This document shows, one piece after another, positions 20,575 through 30,371 of a stretch of 64,000 nucleotides of DNA. The stretch is from NCBI GenBank assembly GCA_965238175.1, contig CBDEGZ010000003.1, positions 160,001 to 224,000 of the forward strand, written 5' to 3'. Source of the stretch: Gammaproteobacteria bacterium. Lineage in GTDB: Bacteria > Pseudomonadota > Gammaproteobacteria > CAJXQU01. The first letter of the stretch is position 1, and every line of letters starts with the position of its first letter. The notes below the pieces were generated by a model. It made no database searches, was not told the origin of the DNA, and was given only the letters and a program-made list of their open reading frames with translations. A program made the position numbers and the translations under genes.

Positions 20575-21039
20575 ATGGAGCAGTTCAAACTTTATCTATC
20601 AACTATTCTTTTGAACATAATGATCTCAGCATGTTCAGAGCCACTAGATCCTTATGAAGCTTTTGCGGTTGGTGAATACGAGGCTGCAAAACAGCAATTA
20701 CTGCCACTTGCCGCAGAAAACGATCTAAAAGCCATGACCTACCTGGCAGCTGTTTATCAAATAGAACGTAATTACACAAAAGCCGTAGAACTCTATACGA
20801 AAGCGGCATTAAAAGATTATGTCCCTGCACAATATAATCTGGGAGTGATGGCATACCAGGGAAAAGGTATGGAACCGGATAATCTCAAAGCTTACGGTTG
20901 GTTGGATCATGCAAGGGAGCAAGGTCACCCAAAAGCGAGTGACTTCATCAATGGGTTTCTTCGGTTTGAAATGACGCCAAACGCCGCAATGCAAGCAAAA
21001 GAAGATGTTAAAAAACTGATCAGAGCTGAGGCTGAATAG
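20575..21039 (+). CDS. Sel1-repeat lipoprotein
   Basis: Likely start 20575 with ISAC lipobox; AQYNLGVMAYQGKGM..AYGW Sel1 repeats. Confidence 0.75.
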   Translation: MEQFKLYLSTILLNIMISACSEPLDPYEAFAVGEYEAAKQQLLPLAAENDLKAMTYLAAVYQIERNYTKAVELYTKAALKDYVPAQYNLGVMAYQGKGMEPDNLKAYGWLDHAREQGHPKASDFINGFLRFEMTPNAAMQAKEDVKKLIRAEAE

Positions 21040-21045
21040 CACTCT

Positions 21046-21073
21046 AAAAAAACAGTATAAATAAACTGTTTTT
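21046..21073. terminator. Bidirectional terminator
   Basis: AAAAAAACAGT-ataaataa-ACTGTTTTT between convergent genes. Confidence 0.6.
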
Positions 21074-24000
21074 ACAGATTATCCTCCAACAACATAATTT
21101 CCGTTTTGCTTAGATCAAATAAATCATAAACCAACGAATTGATTTGTTGTTCTGCTTGGGCAATCTGCACACTGAGTTGTTCGATTTTCTCTGTCTCGAC
21201 ATTTAACCAGCTTTCCCAGTCATTACGATCTTGCAAAGGAATATCCTGTTTAAACTGCTTTTTGATCTCACGACGAAATAAAGCAAAATCCAGCGCCCAC
21301 CATTCGATCAGTTTTTTAGATAATTTGGCTTCACGATCAGAAGGACACAAGTCTGGAATGCGTTGACGCACCGCTTTCTGGATCGCATAGCGTTGTTCTG
21401 CAAAGTGTTGACAGGATTCTGCTAGCTCCGCGAGTGTTTGTTTTTGTTGATCTGTAGCTGTTGGGATAGGAAAAGGTTCAATGAACTGATTTTTCATCCT
21501 TAAATACCCACCACGTAAAATTGTAGTGACCGACGAAAAGTGAAACCAAGCCAGGCTAGAATTTAGTATCGCTAGTAATTCAAGTTCGGCATTAGGTAAG
21601 AAGAAAGTTGTGGCTTCTTGATATATACCTGACTTGTCGTAACAAAAAGGATTAGTCGAACAAATTTCGATATAGCTAATTTTTGGTTCTTCAAACATAT
21701 GATAGTAATCACAGGATCGTAGTTCCCACCAAAATTCACCTTTATCACTACGCCTTTTTCCTTTGGCTGAAAATGGAATTAACCAGTTACATATTGCTGG
21801 ATATAGTTGGAGTAGTTCAGAGAAGGCTTTATCCTCGTCAATATTTCCAAATTTAGAAGTCGTCCATCCTTTTGGAAAGAGAATTAAAAAGTTTCCCTGG
21901 TTATCAAAATGCCACTTTCTAATTTCATTTCCTTTGATTAAAGGTTTGACTATCTCAGTAGAGTTTGGATCTTCCCGCACTAGCTGATCACGTGTTTTGC
22001 GATCAATCACAAATGCTTCATTCAACCCAGTTTTGACGCCGTATTTGGGTGATCCATATACTTCTTTTAGCGTCGGTTTTCCTTGCGTAATTTTTGATCG
22101 CAGCTCGGCAAGTTGATGTTCTTCGAGTCGCCAGCTTTGTTGTTGCAATTGCTGTTGTTGCATGACGCGTTGAGATTGTTGGAAGTGACTGTGCAAATCT
22201 TCCGGCAGTTGATTTTGCAGGGACAAAAATGAAATGTTGCTGTTGGGATTTGCCGTTTGATTGCGCGCAATAATAATCGCCGGATAAGTTGTGACCCCTT
22301 CAAACAATTGCAAATCATTAAAATTGATCAGTACTTCCAATGTGGTTTGTTGGCTCAGAAAAGTGCGTAAATTTTTACCACTGCTGGTTTTAAAAAACGT
22401 GCTGGATGAAATGTAACCGAGCAAACCGTCGGGCTTTAACACACGCATACCCAGCTCAAAAAAGTAGCAATACAGATCAGCCACGCCATGATAAACCGTG
22501 TAGTTTTGTTCTAGCCAGGGTTTGATTTCACTAATCCGTTCCTGGCGGACATAAGGTGGGTTTCCGAGCACAACATCAAAACCACCTGTTGCAAATACCG
22601 CAGGAAATTGTTGTTGCCAGTTAAAGGCGTGATGATCAATTTGCCGATCGTTGATCAGAGAATTGCCGTGTTTGAGGTTGTCATCCAGACTGGTTAACGG
22701 TTTGCCCTTGTGCGCAGTTTTCAGCCAGAGTGAGAGTTTGGTAATTTCTATTGATTCTTCATTTAGATCAACACCGTATAAATTGTTGTTGAGGATTTCT
22801 TTATCCAGATCGAAGAGATCCCGGCTGCCGGTAATATCGGCCAGCTTGTCATTTACGCGGGTGTATTCAGCGTATAAATAATCAAATGCGGCAACTAAAA
22901 AAGCACCAGATCCGCAGGCAGGATCAAGTATGCGAATTTGCATTAAGGTATCACGCCAGCTTATCCAGAATTGTTGTTCGGATGATTTATTTTTCCAGCG
23001 TATTTTTTGATCACTTTCTTCAAAAGATTGTTTTTTTGTGTATTGGATCAACAACTGATCAAACGCATTTTTTAAGTAGCTGCCGAGGGTCTTTTCAACA
23101 ATAAACTGGGTGATGTTATCGGGTGTGTAAACGACGCCATGTTGCTTGCGCTTACCTTTAACGGCGGTTTGTTTTTCGATAAGTTGCGTAGGCGTAGTAC
23201 CAGCTTCGATCGTTTCGTGAATGGTTTCCAGATCACTGATCGATTGTTCAAAAATATGCCCGAGTACAGTGACGCCAACTTCGGATTCAAAGTCGTATTC
23301 ACCAAGCGCTTTGAATTTTTCACAAAGATCATCACTAATTACAAGTTGATCTATGGCTGGATCAGGTGAAAATAAACCGCCGTTATACGCGGGTATGTCG
23401 AGCGTTTTGTTACCCTGATTAATTGCCTGAAATAAACCTTTGAAATTTTCCCAAATTGGTTTTTGATTATAGGGATCATTATGTTGATAAGCCTTTTGCA
23501 AAGTTTGTTCTGGCAATAAGCCACGATCTTCCGCGAAAGCGATAAACAAAATACGATCGAGCAGAGTTTGTGCATGGCCGACTAATGTGAGTGACGAAGT
23601 GTTCGGATTGTCGTGTTGTAAGGAGTCGATCAAATGGAAACGTAAGTTGCGGTAATCTTCATAAAGACGACTGGTAATGTCTTTTTCGGCTTTTTCGCTG
23701 GCTTCTAGTAAAGAACGTGTTTCAGTTCTAAGTAAATTTTTTGCAGAGAGTAGCAGCATGAATCGAGCATATTCATGGGGATCTAATAGATCAGTAAATT
23801 GCCAGGTTTCGTAATCCTGGCGACCATAACCGACTGCATATAACCGAACCTCGACATAATTACTTAGTAAAACCCATTTTGCGCCCGGTGCGTCCATTGC
23901 ATATTCCCATGCTTGTTGAACCGGACTTTTATGACGGCCTGACATGATTGCGTCGAGATCTTTGGTGTTAGCACCTTTGAGTTCAAATGGCGCGATGATT

Positions 24001-24287
24001 TGTGCTTCTGTTTCGCTAAAACGGCCAAGTGCAACATCAACATTTCCACGACCAATTTTTTGCTCTCGCTGCAGATCCCATTGATCGGATTCACCAAAAC
24101 CCTGATAACCGAGAACCCCGATCAGAATCTCATGAATAAAATGACCATGGAGGGCAACTTCGTTTTGCGAATAGATCGAACGTGATTCGATGCTGTCCAC
24201 CCATTTTTGCAAAATAGTTTTGTGGGCATCAGGAATATGCAGTTCTGAGATCGAACGAGATAAAATTTTGGATTGAAAAAGTGGCAT
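21072..24287 (-). CDS. Type IIG (Eco57I-like) fused restriction endonuclease / N6-adenine methyltransferase
   Basis: N-terminal VD...ELK nuclease motif; YNGGLF, GHIFEQ, GVVYTP, DPACGSGAFL, GNPPY; TaqI-C-like target recognition region. Confidence 0.9.
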   Translation of the reverse strand: MPLFQSKILSRSISELHIPDAHKTILQKWVDSIESRSIYSQNEVALHGHFIHEILIGVLGYQGFGESDQWDLQREQKIGRGNVDVALGRFSETEAQIIAPFELKGANTKDLDAIMSGRHKSPVQQAWEYAMDAPGAKWVLLSNYVEVRLYAVGYGRQDYETWQFTDLLDPHEYARFMLLLSAKNLLRTETRSLLEASEKAEKDITSRLYEDYRNLRFHLIDSLQHDNPNTSSLTLVGHAQTLLDRILFIAFAEDRGLLPEQTLQKAYQHNDPYNQKPIWENFKGLFQAINQGNKTLDIPAYNGGLFSPDPAIDQLVISDDLCEKFKALGEYDFESEVGVTVLGHIFEQSISDLETIHETIEAGTTPTQLIEKQTAVKGKRKQHGVVYTPDNITQFIVEKTLGSYLKNAFDQLLIQYTKKQSFEESDQKIRWKNKSSEQQFWISWRDTLMQIRILDPACGSGAFLVAAFDYLYAEYTRVNDKLADITGSRDLFDLDKEILNNNLYGVDLNEESIEITKLSLWLKTAHKGKPLTSLDDNLKHGNSLINDRQIDHHAFNWQQQFPAVFATGGFDVVLGNPPYVRQERISEIKPWLEQNYTVYHGVADLYCYFFELGMRVLKPDGLLGYISSSTFFKTSSGKNLRTFLSQQTTLEVLINFNDLQLFEGVTTYPAIIIARNQTANPNSNISFLSLQNQLPEDLHSHFQQSQRVMQQQQLQQQSWRLEEHQLAELRSKITQGKPTLKEVYGSPKYGVKTGLNEAFVIDRKTRDQLVREDPNSTEIVKPLIKGNEIRKWHFDNQGNFLILFPKGWTTSKFGNIDEDKAFSELLQLYPAICNWLIPFSAKGKRRSDKGEFWWELRSCDYYHMFEEPKISYIEICSTNPFCYDKSGIYQEATTFFLPNAELELLAILNSSLAWFHFSSVTTILRGGYLRMKNQFIEPFPIPTATDQQKQTLAELAESCQHFAEQRYAIQKAVRQRIPDLCPSDREAKLSKKLIEWWALDFALFRREIKKQFKQDIPLQDRNDWESWLNVETEKIEQLSVQIAQAEQQINSLVYDLFDLSKTEIMLLEDNL

Positions 24288-24354: not shown

Positions 24355-26007
24355 TTAATCTTTGATATGAGTGAATCGCACAGGTACAATCACGCCTCGT
24401 GCCGGGGTGGCGGAATTGGTAGACGCGCCGGATTCAAAATCCGGTTTCTTCGGAAGTGCGAGTTCGATTCTCGCCCTCGGCACCATTTGATTATTGTTGG
24501 TTGAGATATCCCTTAAGAGTTTGAATGGTAAGGAGATTTCTGGTGTTCTAGCGCCATGATTTCGCTCATAAGCTAATCCTTGCGTAAATACGAGTTTTAG
24601 CACGGCTCTTTTATCTTCAAACCTCTCAGAGAGCCATATCTTATGCGGGTTTTCAAGAAATCGCAGCGCGGTTCTAGAAATGCTCTCAAAGGGTCTGATG
24701 GGCTGGCTCACACCCTCTATTTTTTCGTTGAGCAGCGCTTTTTCATGTTCTAGAGTATGCATCTTTGTTTCAAGGTTCTTGGTCACGGCGGCGCTGCTGG
24801 ACTCAATCATTAAATCTAGAGCCTTGTTAATTTTCTCATCTGTTTGCTCGCGCTGGGCTTTTAGCTCTTGCCTGCGTTGTTTTTGATGCTTTGCCCGGTA
24901 ATCCCATATGGCGCTGAACATGGCTGTTGCTGCCTTCATGACCGGCTTGGCAGGGGTTAGAGATTGAAGCAACTCTTCAAACGCGCCCTCCACATCGGCC
25001 CGGCGGAGTGATTTACCGTAGCTCTCGCAGCCCTTTTGTTGGCACAGGTAATAAGGATGGTGTTTGGTTTTGCCTTTACTAAAACACGAGGTGTAAGGCT
25101 TGCCGCAATCACCGCACAGGATAAAGCCGCGCAAAGGGAATTCCTGATTGAGGTCTTTACGCGCAGGCACATAAGCCCGGCCTTTCATACGGCCCTGTAT
25201 GCGCTCGAAAGTTTCCAAGTCTATAAGAGGTTCATGATGAGCCCGTACCATCGATATTCCCCAGCGCTCATGGGTGATATATCCGGCGTAGAGCACGCGG
25301 GTTAGCAAGTCAGGCACACGTTTATTGGCAATGCGTCCATGGGCATTTTTAGGAATGGTCTCATGCTTTTCTAAAAACTTGCGCACTTCTGCTTGGGTCT
25401 GAAACCTCCCCCGTGCATAGCCTTCAAGGGCTTCTTGAACGATAGAGGCGTTTGGCTCATCACGAACCAGCAATTTGCCATGACCTTTGGTCTTTTTGTA
25501 GCGGTAGCCTAGCGGGGCTTGAAAGACAAAATAGCCTTGCTCCAAACGTGCCTGCATTTTTTGAATGGTTTGGCGCCCGGTTTGCGCACGCTCCAGCTCA
25601 CCTTGGGCAGCATGGATAATCTCAACGAACTTGCCTTCAGGCGTATCTTCAAACTTAAAGTTTAAGCACTCTATTGTGGCATGATACTTCGTCATCTCAG
25701 CGCGCAGCTTAAGATGGAACATTGTGTCACGGGCAAAGCGCTTTAAATCATCAAAAATCACCACATAATCTGTATTTCTGCGGCGGCGTAAATAATCCAA
25801 TAGCGCCACCATACCTTTGCGTTTCATAAAATCACCGCCGCCAGAAACGTCATCAGTGAAGACCTTCTCAACGCTATAGCCCTGAGAGTTCGCATATTTG
25901 CGGCAGCGATGTTCTTGGCTTTCTAGCCCTGAGCCTTCAACGCGCTGCTTGATGGAGCTAATGCGGCAATAGATGATAGCTTTTGGTGGTTGAGATGTTT
26001 GCTTCAT
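24355..26007 (-). CDS. Large serine recombinase (resolvase + recombinase + zinc ribbon + coiled coil); last 43 aa read antisense through tRNA-Leu
   Basis: YCRISS catalytic motif, DDLKRFAR, APLGY, HEPLID.ETF, CGDC..YYLC zinc ribbon. Confidence 0.93.
   Translation of the reverse strand: MKQTSQPPKAIIYCRISSIKQRVEGSGLESQEHRCRKYANSQGYSVEKVFTDDVSGGGDFMKRKGMVALLDYLRRRRNTDYVVIFDDLKRFARDTMFHLKLRAEMTKYHATIECLNFKFEDTPEGKFVEIIHAAQGELERAQTGRQTIQKMQARLEQGYFVFQAPLGYRYKKTKGHGKLLVRDEPNASIVQEALEGYARGRFQTQAEVRKFLEKHETIPKNAHGRIANKRVPDLLTRVLYAGYITHERWGISMVRAHHEPLIDLETFERIQGRMKGRAYVPARKDLNQEFPLRGFILCGDCGKPYTSCFSKGKTKHHPYYLCQQKGCESYGKSLRRADVEGAFEELLQSLTPAKPVMKAATAMFSAIWDYRAKHQKQRRQELKAQREQTDEKINKALDLMIESSSAAVTKNLETKMHTLEHEKALLNEKIEGVSQPIRPFESISRTALRFLENPHKIWLSERFEDKRAVLKLVFTQGLAYERNHGARTPEISLPFKLLRDISTNNNQMVPRARIELALPKKPDFESGASTNSATPARGVIVPVRFTHIKD
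24362..24390 (+). promoter_or_regulatory. Putative sigma70 promoter of tRNA-Leu
   Basis: TTGATA-17 nt-TACAAT, 10 nt upstream of the tRNA. Confidence 0.65.
24401..24485 (+). tRNA. tRNA-Leu (anticodon CAA)
   Basis: GCCGGGGTGGCGGAATTGGTAGACGCG-CCGGATTCAAAATCCGG-long variable arm-GCGAGTTCGATTCTCGC-CCTCGGCACCA; 85 nt, CCA encoded. Confidence 0.97.
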
Positions 26008-26292
26008 TTACTCCTCCTTTGCAGGCGTCGACATTACGCGGCGATGAACAAGTTTAAGATTATGGTTCTTTTTTAAAGAATTGTCAGAATCAGGGGAAGC
26101 TTTTTCAAAGATATCGGGCAAAAACATCTGGACACTATCCAGCCCCCAGCCAATATCAACAAATGTATGCATGATGTGCCACAGAGCTGTGAGGAGCTGC
26201 TCAGCCTCCTCATCGGTAATCTCAACACCGTCTAAATGATGGAGATATTCATCGGGATTAAAGTCTAGCTTCGGTGGTGGTTGGCTGGCCAT
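26008..26292 (-). CDS. Small protein coupled to the recombinase gene
   Basis: RBS AAGGAG; stop codon abuts the recombinase ATG; core EQLLTALWHIMHTFVDIGWG. Confidence 0.7.
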   Translation of the reverse strand: MASQPPPKLDFNPDEYLHHLDGVEITDEEAEQLLTALWHIMHTFVDIGWGLDSVQMFLPDIFEKASPDSDNSLKKNHNLKLVHRRVMSTPAKEE

Positions 26293-26692
26293 GGGCGTTG
26301 CTCCTTATTGGTAAAGAGTAAAGATAGGCTTACTTTTTACCATTGAGAGCAGTGAGAAATGGGAAACATGTTAATCAGGGAAGAGGGCTTTAACCAGTCT
26401 CAGGCGGTGTAATACAGGCACATTTTTGTATTCCAAATCCATTCAATGCTTGGATATAAACCCAATCACACTCCGTGCAAGCTGTGCGGTGTTATACACC
26501 GCGCTTGGCAAGGGGGTCGCTGCGCACCCCCGTTGCATCCCCCTAGCAGATGGCGTTACTCGCACCATTCAATGTAATCGCATTAGGTTTATAGCTAAGC
26601 TTCCCATGCGATTTTCATTGACATAATTGATTATGGTCTGCTATCAATATCACCCTGAAAGTTAATGGATTAACAATAAGAAAGCGCAAGAT

Positions 26693-28105
26693 TTGTCTAC
26701 TACGAAAGATGTATACGAAGAGTACATTATTGAGTGTTTAAAAGAGGCGGGCCTCACGGATGAGCAAGCTCATTCTGTTTGTCCAACTCTACTGAATGGG
26801 CTTGATTTTCTTGGTGGAACGCGTTCTTTTGACTCTCAGTTATTCGCATATAAAGAGAAGGTCGAGCGAAGCTCTTCGTTGTTAGACCTTAAGAAAAGTC
26901 AGTTCGTTGCAGCGGCACTAAAACAACCTCAACTCTTTTATCAATCGCCGGAAACCATCAACGCGAATGTTGAGGGTAGTGTCAGATTGCTAAAACTTGA
27001 GAAAAAGCAGTTTTTATCCGCGGCACTGAAACAGCCTCAGCTATTTTATCAACGTCCAGAAACCATCAATGAGAATGTTGAAAGGAGTGCTTCATTGTTG
27101 GAGCTTAAAAAGAGCCAGTTCATTGTGGCTGGATTGAAACGGCCCCAGCTTTTTGCTCAATCACCGGAGACAATCAATAGAAACATTGAAGGGAGCGCTG
27201 CATTATTGAAGCTTGAGAAAAGCCAGTTCGTCGCAGCAGCACTAAAAAACCCTTCACTCTTTTATCGATCACCGGAGGCCATCAATAGAAATGTTGAGGC
27301 CAGTGCTCTATTGTTAGAACTTAAAAAAAACCAATTCGTTGCCGCAGCGTTAAAGCAGCCCCAACTCTTTGCTCAATCGCCAGAGACTATCAATGGAAAT
27401 ATTGAGGGTAGTGCTTCACTGCTGGGGCTTGAGAAAAGCCAATTCGTTGCCGCAGCGCTAAAACAGCCTTCACTCTTTCCCCGATCACCAAAGACAATCA
27501 AGAGCAATATTGAAGAGAGCGCTGTGTTATTGGGCCTTGAGAAGGATCAGTTTATAGCGGCGGCTTTAAAGCAGCCTCAGCTTTTTGGCCAATCACCGGA
27601 GACGGTCAACAGCAATGTCGAGAGAAGCGCATCTTTGTTGAAACTTGAAAAAAAACAGTTTGCAGTAGCTGCACTAAAACGGCCCCCTCTTTTTGTTCAA
27701 TCACCAGAGACGATTGCCAGACATGCACGGCTTATGGAGATATTTGCACAAAAAGGCCTTGCGCCTAATTCTGTGCAGAAATTTTATCTTAAAACCCCAC
27801 TTATGCTTACCCTTGCGGATAATAATTTTCACTTGCGTTTGGTATATGCACTTCATTCAAAAATGGGGAATATTGAAAACTTCACATTATTGCGCACACC
27901 AAGAAAAACAATTGAGCGTGATTTTGTGAGGGCTTTGGGGCACAATCCTGATGTCAAAACCATCACAGATATAAAGCCTCGCAGAGAGCAGGTTCAAAGT
28001 AAGGCAGCTCAAAACCTTCGTACTTTGATTGCAAATATACAAAATGGGTTGTTAAAGGGGTATAAGTACGAGCCTACAGAAGAGGTAAGCGAACTTGCTT
28101 TGTAG
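26693..28105 (+). CDS. Tandem-repeat protein with eight 36-aa mTERF-like repeats
   Basis: Repeats at aa 57-344, consensus VExSAxLLxLxKxQFVAAALKQPQLFxQSPETINxN; TTG start; TTGACA upstream at 26618. Confidence 0.8.
   Translation: MSTTKDVYEEYIIECLKEAGLTDEQAHSVCPTLLNGLDFLGGTRSFDSQLFAYKEKVERSSSLLDLKKSQFVAAALKQPQLFYQSPETINANVEGSVRLLKLEKKQFLSAALKQPQLFYQRPETINENVERSASLLELKKSQFIVAGLKRPQLFAQSPETINRNIEGSAALLKLEKSQFVAAALKNPSLFYRSPEAINRNVEASALLLELKKNQFVAAALKQPQLFAQSPETINGNIEGSASLLGLEKSQFVAAALKQPSLFPRSPKTIKSNIEESAVLLGLEKDQFIAAALKQPQLFGQSPETVNSNVERSASLLKLEKKQFAVAALKRPPLFVQSPETIARHARLMEIFAQKGLAPNSVQKFYLKTPLMLTLADNNFHLRLVYALHSKMGNIENFTLLRTPRKTIERDFVRALGHNPDVKTITDIKPRREQVQSKAAQNLRTLIANIQNGLLKGYKYEPTEEVSELAL
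26861..27724 (+). repeat. 8 x 108-bp coding tandem repeat
   Basis: In-frame 36-codon units with synonymous divergence. Confidence 0.93.
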
Positions 28106-28128
28106 TTCTCAAGGGGGAACGCAGCAAC

Positions 28129-28224
28129 TTACTCCAAACTAGGAAAGTTATCTTCAAGATAGTCACTCCACTCCTCCAACGTATCACACAAGGTGTTCGA
28201 GGTTTCACTATCAGGGTGCACCAT
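28129..28224 (-). other. Displaced 3' end of the serine recombinase gene (MVHPDSETSNTLCDTLEEWSDYLEDNFPSLE*)
   Basis: Starts inside the right direct repeat with the same ATG GTG C as recombinase codons 508-510; open for 31 codons to TAA. Confidence 0.75.
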
Positions 28225-28260
28225 TTCAACGTCCACTACCTTCCAGTAACACCTACACAG

Positions 28261-29346
28261 TTACTCTTCTTGCTTGTGTATTAGATCTACTAATGACCTG
28301 TTGATATAAAAATTTGTGCGTCCTACTTTGTGTTTGTCGACAAAATTATGTTCGTATAATTCATTCAAATATTTGCTGGCTGTGATGCGCTTAACATCTA
28401 ATTGATCCATAACAAATTGTACTTTTGTGTAAGGATGAAAAAACAGGTTGTTGAGTAGTTCTTGGCTATAAATTTTTGGTAGTTCTTTACGCATTCTCTG
28501 CTTGGTCACCATAATTAGTTCACGGATCTGATTTACAAACTCTATGGTTTCTCTTGCAGTAATTGCGACACCATCAACAATATAGGCTAGCCAGTCTTGC
28601 CAGTTATTTTGATCGCGAACCAATTGTAACAATCGATAATAATCATCTTTGCTACGGACAATATATCGGCTAAGGTACAAGATAGGTAAGTCTAGCAAAC
28701 CACTTCTTACTAAATACAAAATGTTGAGTATTCTACCTGCTCTTCCATTTCCATCGTAAAATGGATGGATACTTTCAAATTGATGATGAATAATTGCCAT
28801 TTTTATTAATGGATCGAGATCTGAAAGTTGATCGTCGTTAATGTATTCGACAAGGTTGGTGAGCAGATCTGTTATTTCATCTGGGTGCTGTGGAGGAGTA
28901 TGGACAACTTCTCCTGTCCTACTATTACCGATTACAATACCTGGTATTTTTCTAATACCCGGCTTGTTAGGTTCAATGATGGCTTGAATACGTAATATAT
29001 CTTCGAAGCGGATTAGATCTGTGTCTCTTGTATTTCTATAACTTTCCCATAAAGAAGCACGATAGTTCTCCACTTCTTTTGCAGCTTGATTGATTTCTTT
29101 TCCTTGAATAACACCAGCCTGAAAGAGTTGGTCATGAGTGGTAAAGATGTTTTCAATTGCGGAGCTGTCTTTCGCTTCTTGCATTGTTAGTGTAGAAATC
29201 AGTATGCCTTCATTAGGTATGGTTTTAGCCACACCTTTCAATTCAGCAAGGTAACGATGAGCTTGAGCGACTTTTTTTAGAAGCTCTATTGATTCCCATG
29301 AAGCTTCTTCAGGAAAAGGTAACTTCGTAAGAGAGGAAGATTCCAT
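28261..29346 (-). CDS. Fic-domain AMPylase with N-terminal inhibitory motif and probable C-terminal winged helix
   Basis: HPFYDGNGRAGR catalytic motif; SSAIEN inhibitory (S/T)xxxE(G/N) motif. Confidence 0.92.
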   Translation of the reverse strand: MESSSLTKLPFPEEASWESIELLKKVAQAHRYLAELKGVAKTIPNEGILISTLTMQEAKDSSAIENIFTTHDQLFQAGVIQGKEINQAAKEVENYRASLWESYRNTRDTDLIRFEDILRIQAIIEPNKPGIRKIPGIVIGNSRTGEVVHTPPQHPDEITDLLTNLVEYINDDQLSDLDPLIKMAIIHHQFESIHPFYDGNGRAGRILNILYLVRSGLLDLPILYLSRYIVRSKDDYYRLLQLVRDQNNWQDWLAYIVDGVAITARETIEFVNQIRELIMVTKQRMRKELPKIYSQELLNNLFFHPYTKVQFVMDQLDVKRITASKYLNELYEHNFVDKHKVGRTNFYINRSLVDLIHKQEE

Positions 29347-29599
29347 ATGTATAGAAAACTGGGTTTAATTGATATATGGATCAGTATATGTATATATTTT
29401 CCGATTATCTATACATATCAAGATAAACATATATAGAAAACAGCATAATCTATACATTAAAGAAAACTATTTACTTAAAGGATAGATGTGTGAATAAAGT
29501 GAGTAACTTCGATCACCTGGGGGTATTTATAGGGGTATATGAATAAATGTGAAAACAACTAATTCAATATTATCAATTAGTTACTGTTAGTTAGCGGTG

Positions 29600-29617
29600 C
29601 TCGCCCTCGCACCATTT
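29600..29617 (+). repeat. att scar: copy of tRNA-Leu 3' end
   Basis: CTCGCCCTCG-CACCATTT vs tRNA CTCGCCCTCGGCACCATTT (one-base gap). Confidence 0.8.
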
Positions 29618-29745
29618 CAACGTCCAACACTGTCCAATAACATCCTCGAAAACATAAAATATCAATAATTTACCTTGATTCTTTGTCCTGAGTCGTCTTG
29701 TCTTTTATCTGACTTGGGCTGACGAAGAAATGTTAGCCTAACATA

Positions 29746-30371
29746 CGTTGTCGGTTCGGATCGTTTTAATTCGGAAAGGAAATTTATCCACCACGTAATT
29801 AATGAAATCAATCGAATTAGCTTGCGTGTGTTTCTCATAGATTTTAAGTGCTCTTATACGCGTACAATCATCAACCGCTGTGTATTTTGGAAACGTTTAA
29901 GACGTTTTCCGTGTTTATCTTTGAAAAAGAGAAACTTAACATCCACTTGAACATGATGTCCCGGCACTTTTTTTCGTAACGTTTAAACTTACTGTGTGAA
30001 CGTTTCTTGATGTTTTCAGGGAGCCGATTTAGTTTATTTCGGCACAAGAAACACCCATTGCGAGATATTTTAATGTCATGGTAACGCTGTAGATGCCATA
30101 CAATCATATCTGGGCCAAAATGGTACGTGGTTCTCAAGTAAATAATTTTTTCTTCGATTTCTTTAGGCAATCGTAGTTTATGATTTTCAGGACAAGGTTT
30201 ATTGTTAACTAAAGCAGCTTCCCCATGCTCTTCATATGCTCGCTTCCACGTATAAAATGTTTCCCGACAAATACCAAAGTAACGACAGGTCTTTGCGATA
30301 TTGCCAATTTCTTTAGCGTGATTTAATACCTTTAGTTTTCTTGTAATATCGTGTTGTGCCTTTTGATTCAT
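29746..30371 (-). pseudogene. IS481-family transposase, frameshifted and truncated
   Basis: N-terminal CRYFGICRETFYTW HTH; continues in other frames as HVQVDVKF and TAVDDCTRIR..PFRIKTIRTDN, then stops. Confidence 0.85.

Follow-up and report, generated by a model that had tools for sequence, protein, structure and literature searches.

What becomes of a large serine recombinase when the attachment (att) site of its own element lies within its gene is the question raised by one locus in a 64,000-nucleotide stretch of a Gammaproteobacteria bacterium genome (assembly GCA_965238175.1, contig CBDEGZ010000003.1, positions 160,001 to 224,000), referred to below as the window. The locus consists of a tRNA-Leu(CAA) gene, a recombinase open reading frame (ORF) that runs into this tRNA in antisense and, at the far end of the same element, a short coding sequence that would replace the antisense end of the recombinase if the element were a circle. 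Considered as a whole, the findings indicate with moderate confidence that positions 24489-28226 constitute a minimal representative of a very large proteobacterial family of integrative elements with a state-sensing swap of the recombinase tail; the architecture and the tail swap taken alone are very probable. The features concerned are these:

24401..24485, + strand: tRNA-Leu(CAA), intact, the target gene (ARAGORN; Rfam RF00005, 60.4 bits)
24355..26007, - strand: large serine recombinase in its integrated-state form, 550 residues (Resolvase, Recombinase and Zn_ribbon_recom domains)
24480..24488: attL copy of a 9-base repeat
28218..28226: attR copy of the 9-base repeat
28129..28224, - strand: displaced tail, consisting of M-V, an acidic stretch of 29 residues and a stop, which joins recombinase codon 507 in frame in the circle only

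The ORF at 24355-26007 was identified as a large serine recombinase from the presence of Resolvase, Recombinase and zinc-ribbon domains. The Resolvase-type catalytic domain (Pfam Resolvase, E 5.5e-24) occupies residues 10-158, among which R15 and S17 are invariant across 99 aligned sequences and Y13 and C14 also match invariant columns of the family; S17 is the putative nucleophile serine. The four zinc-ribbon cysteines (C298, C301, C322 and C327) are all invariant in the family alignment. Comparisons with the solved structures of the TP901-1, A118 and SPbeta integrases gave E values of 4e-8 to 3e-4 and identity to proteins in a phage collection did not exceed 27%; judged by sequence, the window recombinase is only distant kin of the studied phage enzymes. 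Residues 1-509 are encoded by the element, and the remainder by the antisense strand of the tRNA and by its upstream flank. Past M508-V509, the frame runs on for 41 residues and crosses the whole of tRNA-Leu(CAA), the last 6 bases of which form part of the 9-base repeat. Re-reading of the sequence confirmed the coordinates, lengths and frame that a first-pass annotation of the window had given for this 550-residue ORF and its antisense-tRNA end. The element length of 3738 bp and the 538-residue circle form from the same source were also correct, and translation of the minus strand from 28224 bore out its proposal that the second copy of the core opens an in-frame acidic tail. By hand count on the window protein, the tail of the circle form contains 9 acidic and no basic residues (net -9) and that of the integrated form 7 basic and 4 acidic residues (net +3).

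The crossover must fall inside the 9-base repeat. Taken by itself this repeat was near chance level, since three copies of the 9-mer per window, the number found here (the third is at 29609-29617), were reached in 3 of 100 shuffles; likewise, the attL/attR pair was not among the 20 largest repeat families in a repeat scan. The pair was judged to be real from its position, from the empty site of a congener, from the paralogues described below and from the conserved tail. Evidence from the congener concerned the following segment:

28227..28256, + strand: B' arm, the sequence directly after the tRNA in an element-free congener (21/30 identical to G004)

This comparison was made with the sequence just after tRNA-Leu(CAA) in a genome of the same genus (G004), which the P' flank at the other end of the element (24489-24518) matched at only 4 of 30 positions. 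Removal of 24489-28226 therefore rebuilds the arrangement of the congener. Against a second copy of the tRNA-downstream sequence farther right in the window (29618-29647), the B' segment was identical at 22 of 30 positions and the P' flank at 8 of 30. No recombinase was found at this tRNA in any of five congener loci, each covered with about 1.5 kb of flank.

The same layout was evident throughout the recombinase family. The window's genome contains five further copies of the recombinase, of which three are full length (paralogues A, B and C, 46-54% identity) and two are partial (D and E), and all six ORFs run into tRNA antisense sequence. ARAGORN called a tRNA at five of the six (Leu-CAA, Met, Leu-CAG, Lys and Arg-ACG), and at copy C the ORF ends in a tRNA-Arg-like remnant that the program did not call. 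At least 3238 database proteins matched the recombinase at E <=0.001 among 8000 scored candidates. The best 120 of these homologues, classed by a search with signature patterns of our own, included 100 that end in T-arm antisense peptides, 2 that end in the tail and 18 with other ends, 7 of which were clearly tRNA-derived by eye. Similarly, in named genomes, mostly of Alpha- and Gammaproteobacteria, the ORF end overlapped an antisense tRNA gene at 66 of 80 loci, with ten tRNA identities represented (Arg, Thr, Leu, Ala, Met, Val, Ser, Tyr, Glu and Lys). Two of the remaining 14 genome loci gave no C-terminal match, and the other 12 included four with tRNA-like peptides at which no gene was called and one (L046) with the tail. 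Among 80 metagenome loci, 45 overlapped an antisense tRNA gene, 8 had tRNA-like ends, 5 were without the C-terminus and 22 were left unclassified by the patterns; the tail was recognized by eye at one metagenome locus (L157). A plasmid collection held no close relative (the best full-length match was 24.7% identical), and short remnants were noted there in Tritonibacter and Phaeobacter records. The absence of close relatives from plasmids and phages fits a family that lives integrated. These recombinases appear to define a very large, tRNA-targeting and apparently undescribed family of elements. Searches that reached few subscription journals and no supplements returned no account of a family of serine integrases that target tRNA genes and share a conserved, swapped tail, and the TIGER/Islander database may well list such islands.

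Conservation of the displaced tail was examined with an eight-row tail alignment (A2), in which S9, N10, L12, L16, W19 and L23 (window numbering) are invariant. A search of the window's genome with this alignment found exactly three places (E 9e-19 to 1e-14), namely the far ends of paralogues A and B and the window tail, the sole match in the window (28129-28224, E 3.2e-15). The tail of paralogue B lies about 30 kb upstream of the recombinase, with an 8-base common core and the same codon phase. That of paralogue A, about 19 kb upstream, is joined to what remains of the decayed 3' end of another recombinase, the junction expected between tandem copies. In other genomes, two tails were present 4.8 and 5.6 kb upstream at locus L021, the nearer joined via an 11-base core, and the tail motif was found in all five chromosome-level genomes with a family member that were searched, 10.6-34 kb upstream, on the same strand and in the same phase to the antisense CCA. 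Cores common to attL and the far end measured 13 and 9 bases in L014, which has two tails, at least 10 bases in L015 and 7 bases in both L022 and L057. Recombinase and tail formed one unbroken ORF in P0023, P0110, L046 and L157. Thus, tails are homologous between elements that occupy different tRNA genes and carry recombinases only about 45-55% identical. The first-pass annotation had made its case depend in part on whether related elements keep a tail at their far ends; such a tail was looked for and was found in frame in the window element, paralogue B, L021, L014, L015, L022 and L057.

Signatures of tandem insertion were also noted, in the form of the recombinase 3' remnant fused to a tail in paralogue A and of tail pairs 0.8-1.5 kb apart in L021 and L014; the loci with such signatures are G000:C3:975782-976080 (L101), L021 4405-5305 and L103. 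From these arrangements, elements of the family seem to stack at one tRNA and later to decay.

Besides encoding protein, the tail-coding arm carries a short sequence in common with the tRNA gene:

24462..24467, + strand: T-loop box of the tRNA (B arm), bases 19-24 from the tRNA 3' end
28195..28200, - strand: T-loop-like box of the P arm, bases 24-29 from the antisense CCA

The two six-base boxes are the same sequence. Among 67 tRNA genes under recombinase ORF ends, bases 19-24 matched the box exactly in 51 and differed from it by no more than one base in all 67, and a box at bases 24-29 was present in 12 of the 13 P arms for which DNA was at hand. The motif is accordingly 5 bp nearer the centre in attB than in attP, as seen in one arm (P/B). 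In the account of Rutherford et al. (PMC3783163), the attP and attB half-sites of a Listeria integrase differ by 5 bp in the position of the motif for the zinc-ribbon domain. Because the shift noted here is exactly this one, the tail-coding arm is a mimic of the tRNA that the enzyme reads as a P arm. All attL/attR pairs have in common only the last acceptor-stem bases, the discriminator and CCA; the crossover must fall in these bases and, by analogy with the Listeria ruler, would be about 5-6 bases from the 3' end. A matching box on the P' arm, or use of a four-residue conserved motif upstream of the core as the box, was considered by eye and rejected, the spacing being unfit for a symmetric site. 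An exact search of metagenome contigs with a 23-base stretch of the window P arm gave no match.

Conservation of the tail outside the box was evident from codon usage. Thus, the three invariant Leu columns each contain 4 different codons, 66 of 131 identical residue pairs among tails use different codons, and the tail Trp and a Tyr/His-Leu pair are also kept through synonymous changes. In paralogue B, a 27-residue insert lies between the box and the helix motif, and the motif is still kept. These patterns suggest that beyond the box conservation acts on the protein, and a protein-level role for the tail is fairly likely.

An AlphaFold2 model of the unintegrated-type homologue P0110, built from a 100-row alignment, had a mean predicted local distance difference test score (pLDDT) of 87.9. 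Folded domains were predicted with confidence to about residue 499 and were followed by a linker (pLDDT <50) and then by a helix at 513-537; the zinc-ribbon domain contains a coiled-coil insertion (helices 351-399 and 403-430, pLDDT >85). Since the folded domains end near residue 499 and the linker follows, the att core is placed in linker-coding DNA. According to this model, integration would remove an appended helix and no folded domain, and the intact folded domains would fit an enzyme that still needs to excise the element. A complex prediction for recombinase residues 1-508, the partner protein described below and the tail gave no answer (scores 0.41, 0.00 and 0.00) and was not used as evidence.

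The remaining genes of the element, and a site that bears on expression of the recombinase, are as follows:

26008..26292, - strand: gene for an acidic partner protein of 94 residues, directly upstream of the recombinase (tblastn; alignment A4)
26293..26692: intergenic stretch between divergent genes, with inverted repeats I3 and I4 (no Rfam match)
26693..28105, + strand: cargo gene, 470-residue mTERF-like repeat protein (Pfam mTERF, E 2.6e-8; repeat family D1)
24362-24390: promoter-like site upstream of tRNA-Leu(CAA)

The window element therefore contains a partner gene, the integrase, the tail and one cargo gene. A partner gene adjoins the recombinase upstream in paralogues A, B and C and, by tblastn, in most of the 80 genome loci. 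The core of its product comprises about 50 residues with a nearly invariant Trp and a Val-Asp pair; the 94-residue protein had no Pfam or NCBIfam match and no resolvase domain, and ESM Atlas returned unnamed clusters only (0.81-0.82). In serine integrases, the direction of recombination normally depends on a factor other than the enzyme. The 94-residue protein is a candidate directionality factor or other partner. The intergenic stretch presumably holds the promoters of both divergent genes. The cargo protein consists of about eight 36-residue repeats, corresponding to 108-bp DNA repeats that are 68-71% identical, and its match to mTERF, a domain best known from eukaryotes, was weak. On the tRNA strand, the first terminator-like site is about 360 bases inside the recombinase gene. 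Because the two genes are convergent, with the promoter-like site upstream and the terminator-like site at this distance, transcription of the tRNA could damp integrase expression when the element is integrated.

Larger members of the family differ in gene content. Paralogues A and B include a relaxase and an accessory relaxosome protein, neither of which accompanies the window element. In both paralogues, the tail stop shares bases with the start codon (ATG) of a NikA/MobC-like gene, and a MobA/VirD2 relaxase gene comes next; the same gene order was read at L046 from translation alone (no Pfam scan). Since the tail stop overlaps the relaxosome start, the circle would be one co-oriented string of partner gene, integrase and relaxosome genes. 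In the chromosome, the partner-integrase half and the relaxosome half sit at opposite ends of the element.

These observations show how the element is built and suggest how it works. The recombinase targets the extreme 3' end of tRNA genes, and the att site of the element lies in the last codons of its gene, within the linker past the last folded domain. Integration swaps a conserved tail of about 30 residues, acidic and predicted to be helical, for residues encoded by tRNA antisense, and excision, or a tandem copy, restores the full recombinase gene. The arm that codes for the tail doubles as the P arm of attP, its T-loop box standing off from the crossover by 5 bp more than that of the tRNA, a spacing that serine integrases require. 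In larger members, the circle rebuilds one operon from the partner gene, integrase and relaxosome genes, and the junction may act as a state sensor, with full-length enzyme and read-through into transfer genes arising from the excised circle only. The enzyme that excises the element would come from the integrated copy, its tail swapped but its catalysis retained, and the 94-residue partner may act with it. For the window element, the swap would turn a strongly acidic tail into a mildly basic one, and activity, direction, stability or response to the 94-residue partner may differ between the two forms. The most likely role for the tail, by analogy with the altered C-terminus of the Mx8 tyrosine integrase, would be to tune activity or direction.

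The switch suggested in the first-pass annotation has thus stood in its structural part, in that the att site lies in the 3' end of the recombinase gene and an in-frame, homologous tail awaits it at the far end. The functional part, that tail exchange could control stability or directionality, is put forward tentatively; control of direction or activity by the tail, taken alone, has a fairly low probability. Also speculative, and of doubtful probability, is the broader idea of a self-rewriting integrase, in which this toggle and the 94-residue protein as directionality factor together set integration versus excision across thousands of elements that read the universal T-loop box and the 3' end of tRNA genes; the full-length form, with its acidic helix, would be expressed along with the relaxosome genes from the circle only, and the tail-swapped form from the chromosome only.

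Neighbouring sequences bear on the choice of the element's right end:

29599..29647, + strand: second copy of the tRNA 3' end (one base missing) and of B', outside the recombinase element

To the right of the element, a 1.4-kb module (28227-29617) holds a Fic-domain gene (28261-29346, - strand; Pfam Fic_N, Fic and SoFic-like_C). An exact direct repeat of 17 bases (28219-28235 and 29609-29625) brackets the module, the edges of which also carry imperfect copies of about 30 more bases of the flank downstream of the tRNA. The module has the appearance of a small adjacent insertion in its own right or of what is left of an older island at this tRNA. The second copy of the tRNA 3' end matches 19 bases of it, one base missing, at 29599-29617, and the flank right of 29617 agreed with the tRNA-downstream sequence of the congener at 22 of 30 positions. 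Just past this remnant is a 166-residue ORF (29871-30371), the start of which resembles a transposase-type helix-turn-helix, and reads in runs X1 and X2 reveal a variant from which 29833-29970 is missing. To the left of the element, just upstream of tRNA-Leu(CAA), a type IIG restriction-modification fusion of 1071 residues (21072-24287; Eco57I and MmeI-type domains and TaqI_C) was noted. Sequence matching window positions 20644-21026 occurs within a few hundred bases of the same tRNA in congeners G002 and G004, and for this reason the fusion gene appears to be inserted too. A second tRNA-Leu(CAA) was called by ARAGORN elsewhere in the genome (G000:C3:427355-427429); at only 75 bases, it is short for a leucine tRNA.

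Several observations weigh against an integrated element with a functional tail swap. Neither a circle junction nor an empty site was seen in 4 sequencing runs, in which the copy was found on 2 metagenome contigs from one sample at about 5x and about 4x, so that direct evidence for excision of the window copy is absent at a read depth of about 4-5x; no RNA run among them contained this copy. No relaxase or relaxosome ORF is present in 24489-28226, and consequently the operon argument is inapplicable to the window element, which could be a stranded derivative. When 10-kb flanks were searched with a hidden Markov model of the tail, matches were obtained at only 2 of 80 genome loci, for which reason the five chromosome-level genomes were searched further out, and these five make up the whole survey beyond that distance. 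At L085, the far end has just 3 + 3 bases in common with attL, and the unintegrated-type sequence L157 is the one P arm without the box. The codons for S9 and N10, which are the same in the 5 tails (of 6) that have these residues, coincide with the six-base box; conservation of this pair would be explained by the DNA box alone. In addition, the tail helix of the P0110 model had a pLDDT of only about 50-70 and was unpacked against the body of the protein, and the tail could be dispensable, since every folded domain survives integration. These last points, together with the overlaps between tail stops and NikA/MobC-like starts in paralogues A and B, lend themselves to another explanation, by which the ORF crosses attP as a by-product of tRNA mimicry and of delivery of ribosomes to the relaxosome start, the tail being without function and both forms of the enzyme alike. 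This account is possible and has a minor share of the probability. Translational coupling, however, requires an open frame rather than a conserved peptide, and the by-product explanation does not anticipate that synonymous changes leave the three Leu columns, the Trp and the Tyr/His-Leu pair intact, that the motif in paralogue B survives 27 residues from the box or that the window tail is kept though no gene follows it.

Two further explanations concern the limits and the reality of the element. A larger element that includes the Fic gene (24489-29617), with its right end at 29599-29617 and the copy at 28218 incidental, would accommodate the match to the tRNA 3' end found there, which exceeds the 9-base repeat in length. 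The tail and a correctly spaced box are, however, at 28195-28224 and neither is present on the strand left of 29599, so 29599 was not taken as the end of the recombinase element. Moreover, the window's only match to the tail alignment lies at the nearer end, the flank right of 28226 is as near the congener as that right of 29617, and the Fic module is flanked by an exact repeat of its own; the larger element is therefore very unlikely. Least probable of all, and barely credible, is a coincidental repeat combined with decay, under which the recombinase gene is dead and the extension of its ORF across the tRNA is without meaning. The shuffles that reached three copies of the 9-mer and the failure to see excision in reads would both fit this explanation, whereas recurrence of the layout in all six genome copies and most family members, homologous in-frame tails at far ends, and an intact ORF with three domains and residues that match the invariant columns of the family would not.

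If 24489-28226 is read as an integrated element whose recombinase exchanges its tail on insertion, several consequences follow. Serine-family integrases have been described as not known to target tRNA genes, in an older statement that tyrosine integrases alone do so (PMC4383910), and the present family contradicts that statement. It would provide a route by which a serine integrase reaches a tRNA, namely recognition of the conserved T-loop box together with the 3' end, the element itself bearing a mimic shifted by 5 bp. Such recognition could explain moves between at least ten tRNA identities, and integrases with landing sites in any genome would be of possible interest. A reaction that rewrites the enzyme's own end would, if real, amount to a built-in memory of the state of the element. 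Furthermore, most database entries of the family are chimeras, in which the last 7 to 130 residues are a translation of tRNA antisense and not protein sequence of the element.

Among known systems, mycobacteriophages with integration-dependent immunity also have attP inside a gene, and integration removes a C-terminal tag, changing the fate of the protein. In that case the gene that is cut encodes the repressor, and the integrase is a tyrosine recombinase. Serine integrative mobilizable elements of the Tn4451 type resemble the present elements in having a single serine recombinase and very short flanking repeats, as outlined in PMC5704250. In the same account, serine elements of Firmicutes disrupt dispensable genes and tRNA 3' ends are assigned to tyrosine integrases; unlike these, the family described here is proteobacterial and leaves the tRNA intact. 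The phage integrases A118/LI, phiC31, Bxb1 and SPbeta have the same set of catalytic domain, recombinase domain and zinc ribbon with coiled coil, and a motif 5 bp nearer the centre in attB, by the description in PMC3783163. Their targets are protein-coding or intergenic, in contrast with the tRNA genes used here, and identity to phage integrases is at most 27%. We know of no report of attP inside int for A118/LI, phiC31, Bxb1 or SPbeta.

A recombination site inside the integrase ORF is also found in the 'suicidal' archaeal integrases of the SSV1 type (PMC7253208, PMC4383910), and extension of some integrases across attP, as in Mx8 and SSV, is mentioned in PMC4383910. As portrayed in these sources, the SSV1-type enzyme is a tyrosine recombinase whose gene is split into two non-functional parts, whereas here only a tail past the last folded domain is exchanged. 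The best functional analogy is with Mx8, in which attP lies in the 3' part of int and integration converts IntP to IntX; according to the summary in PMC6070905, the new 3' end alters behaviour and the enzyme stays active. A new C-terminus on integration is common to both systems, although that of Mx8 belongs to a phage tyrosine recombinase and that described here to a serine recombinase of mobilizable or conjugative elements. Altered behaviour of the integrated form is reported for Mx8 and may also apply to the present family.

The closest likeness in layout, as judged from its description, is to the ssrA islands of Dehalococcoides, in which the large serine recombinase DsiB always overlaps attL and ssrA (McMurdie et al. 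2011, PMC3146451). Both recombinases overlap attL and read antisense into a tRNA-like gene, which for DsiB is the tmRNA. The authors noted that the overlapping part is divergent and raised, as speculation, that full function might be restricted to the circle. In that description insertion is at the T-loop of ssrA and the divergent overlap is reported with no mention of a conserved tail, whereas the elements described here use the 3' end of ordinary tRNA genes and carry a conserved tail. DsiB is accompanied by a small serine recombinase, DsiA, and the recombinase of the present family by a 94-residue protein of no known family. Finally, Dehalococcoides islands are described as forming tandem arrays (PMC3146451), as the tandem signatures noted above hint for this family.

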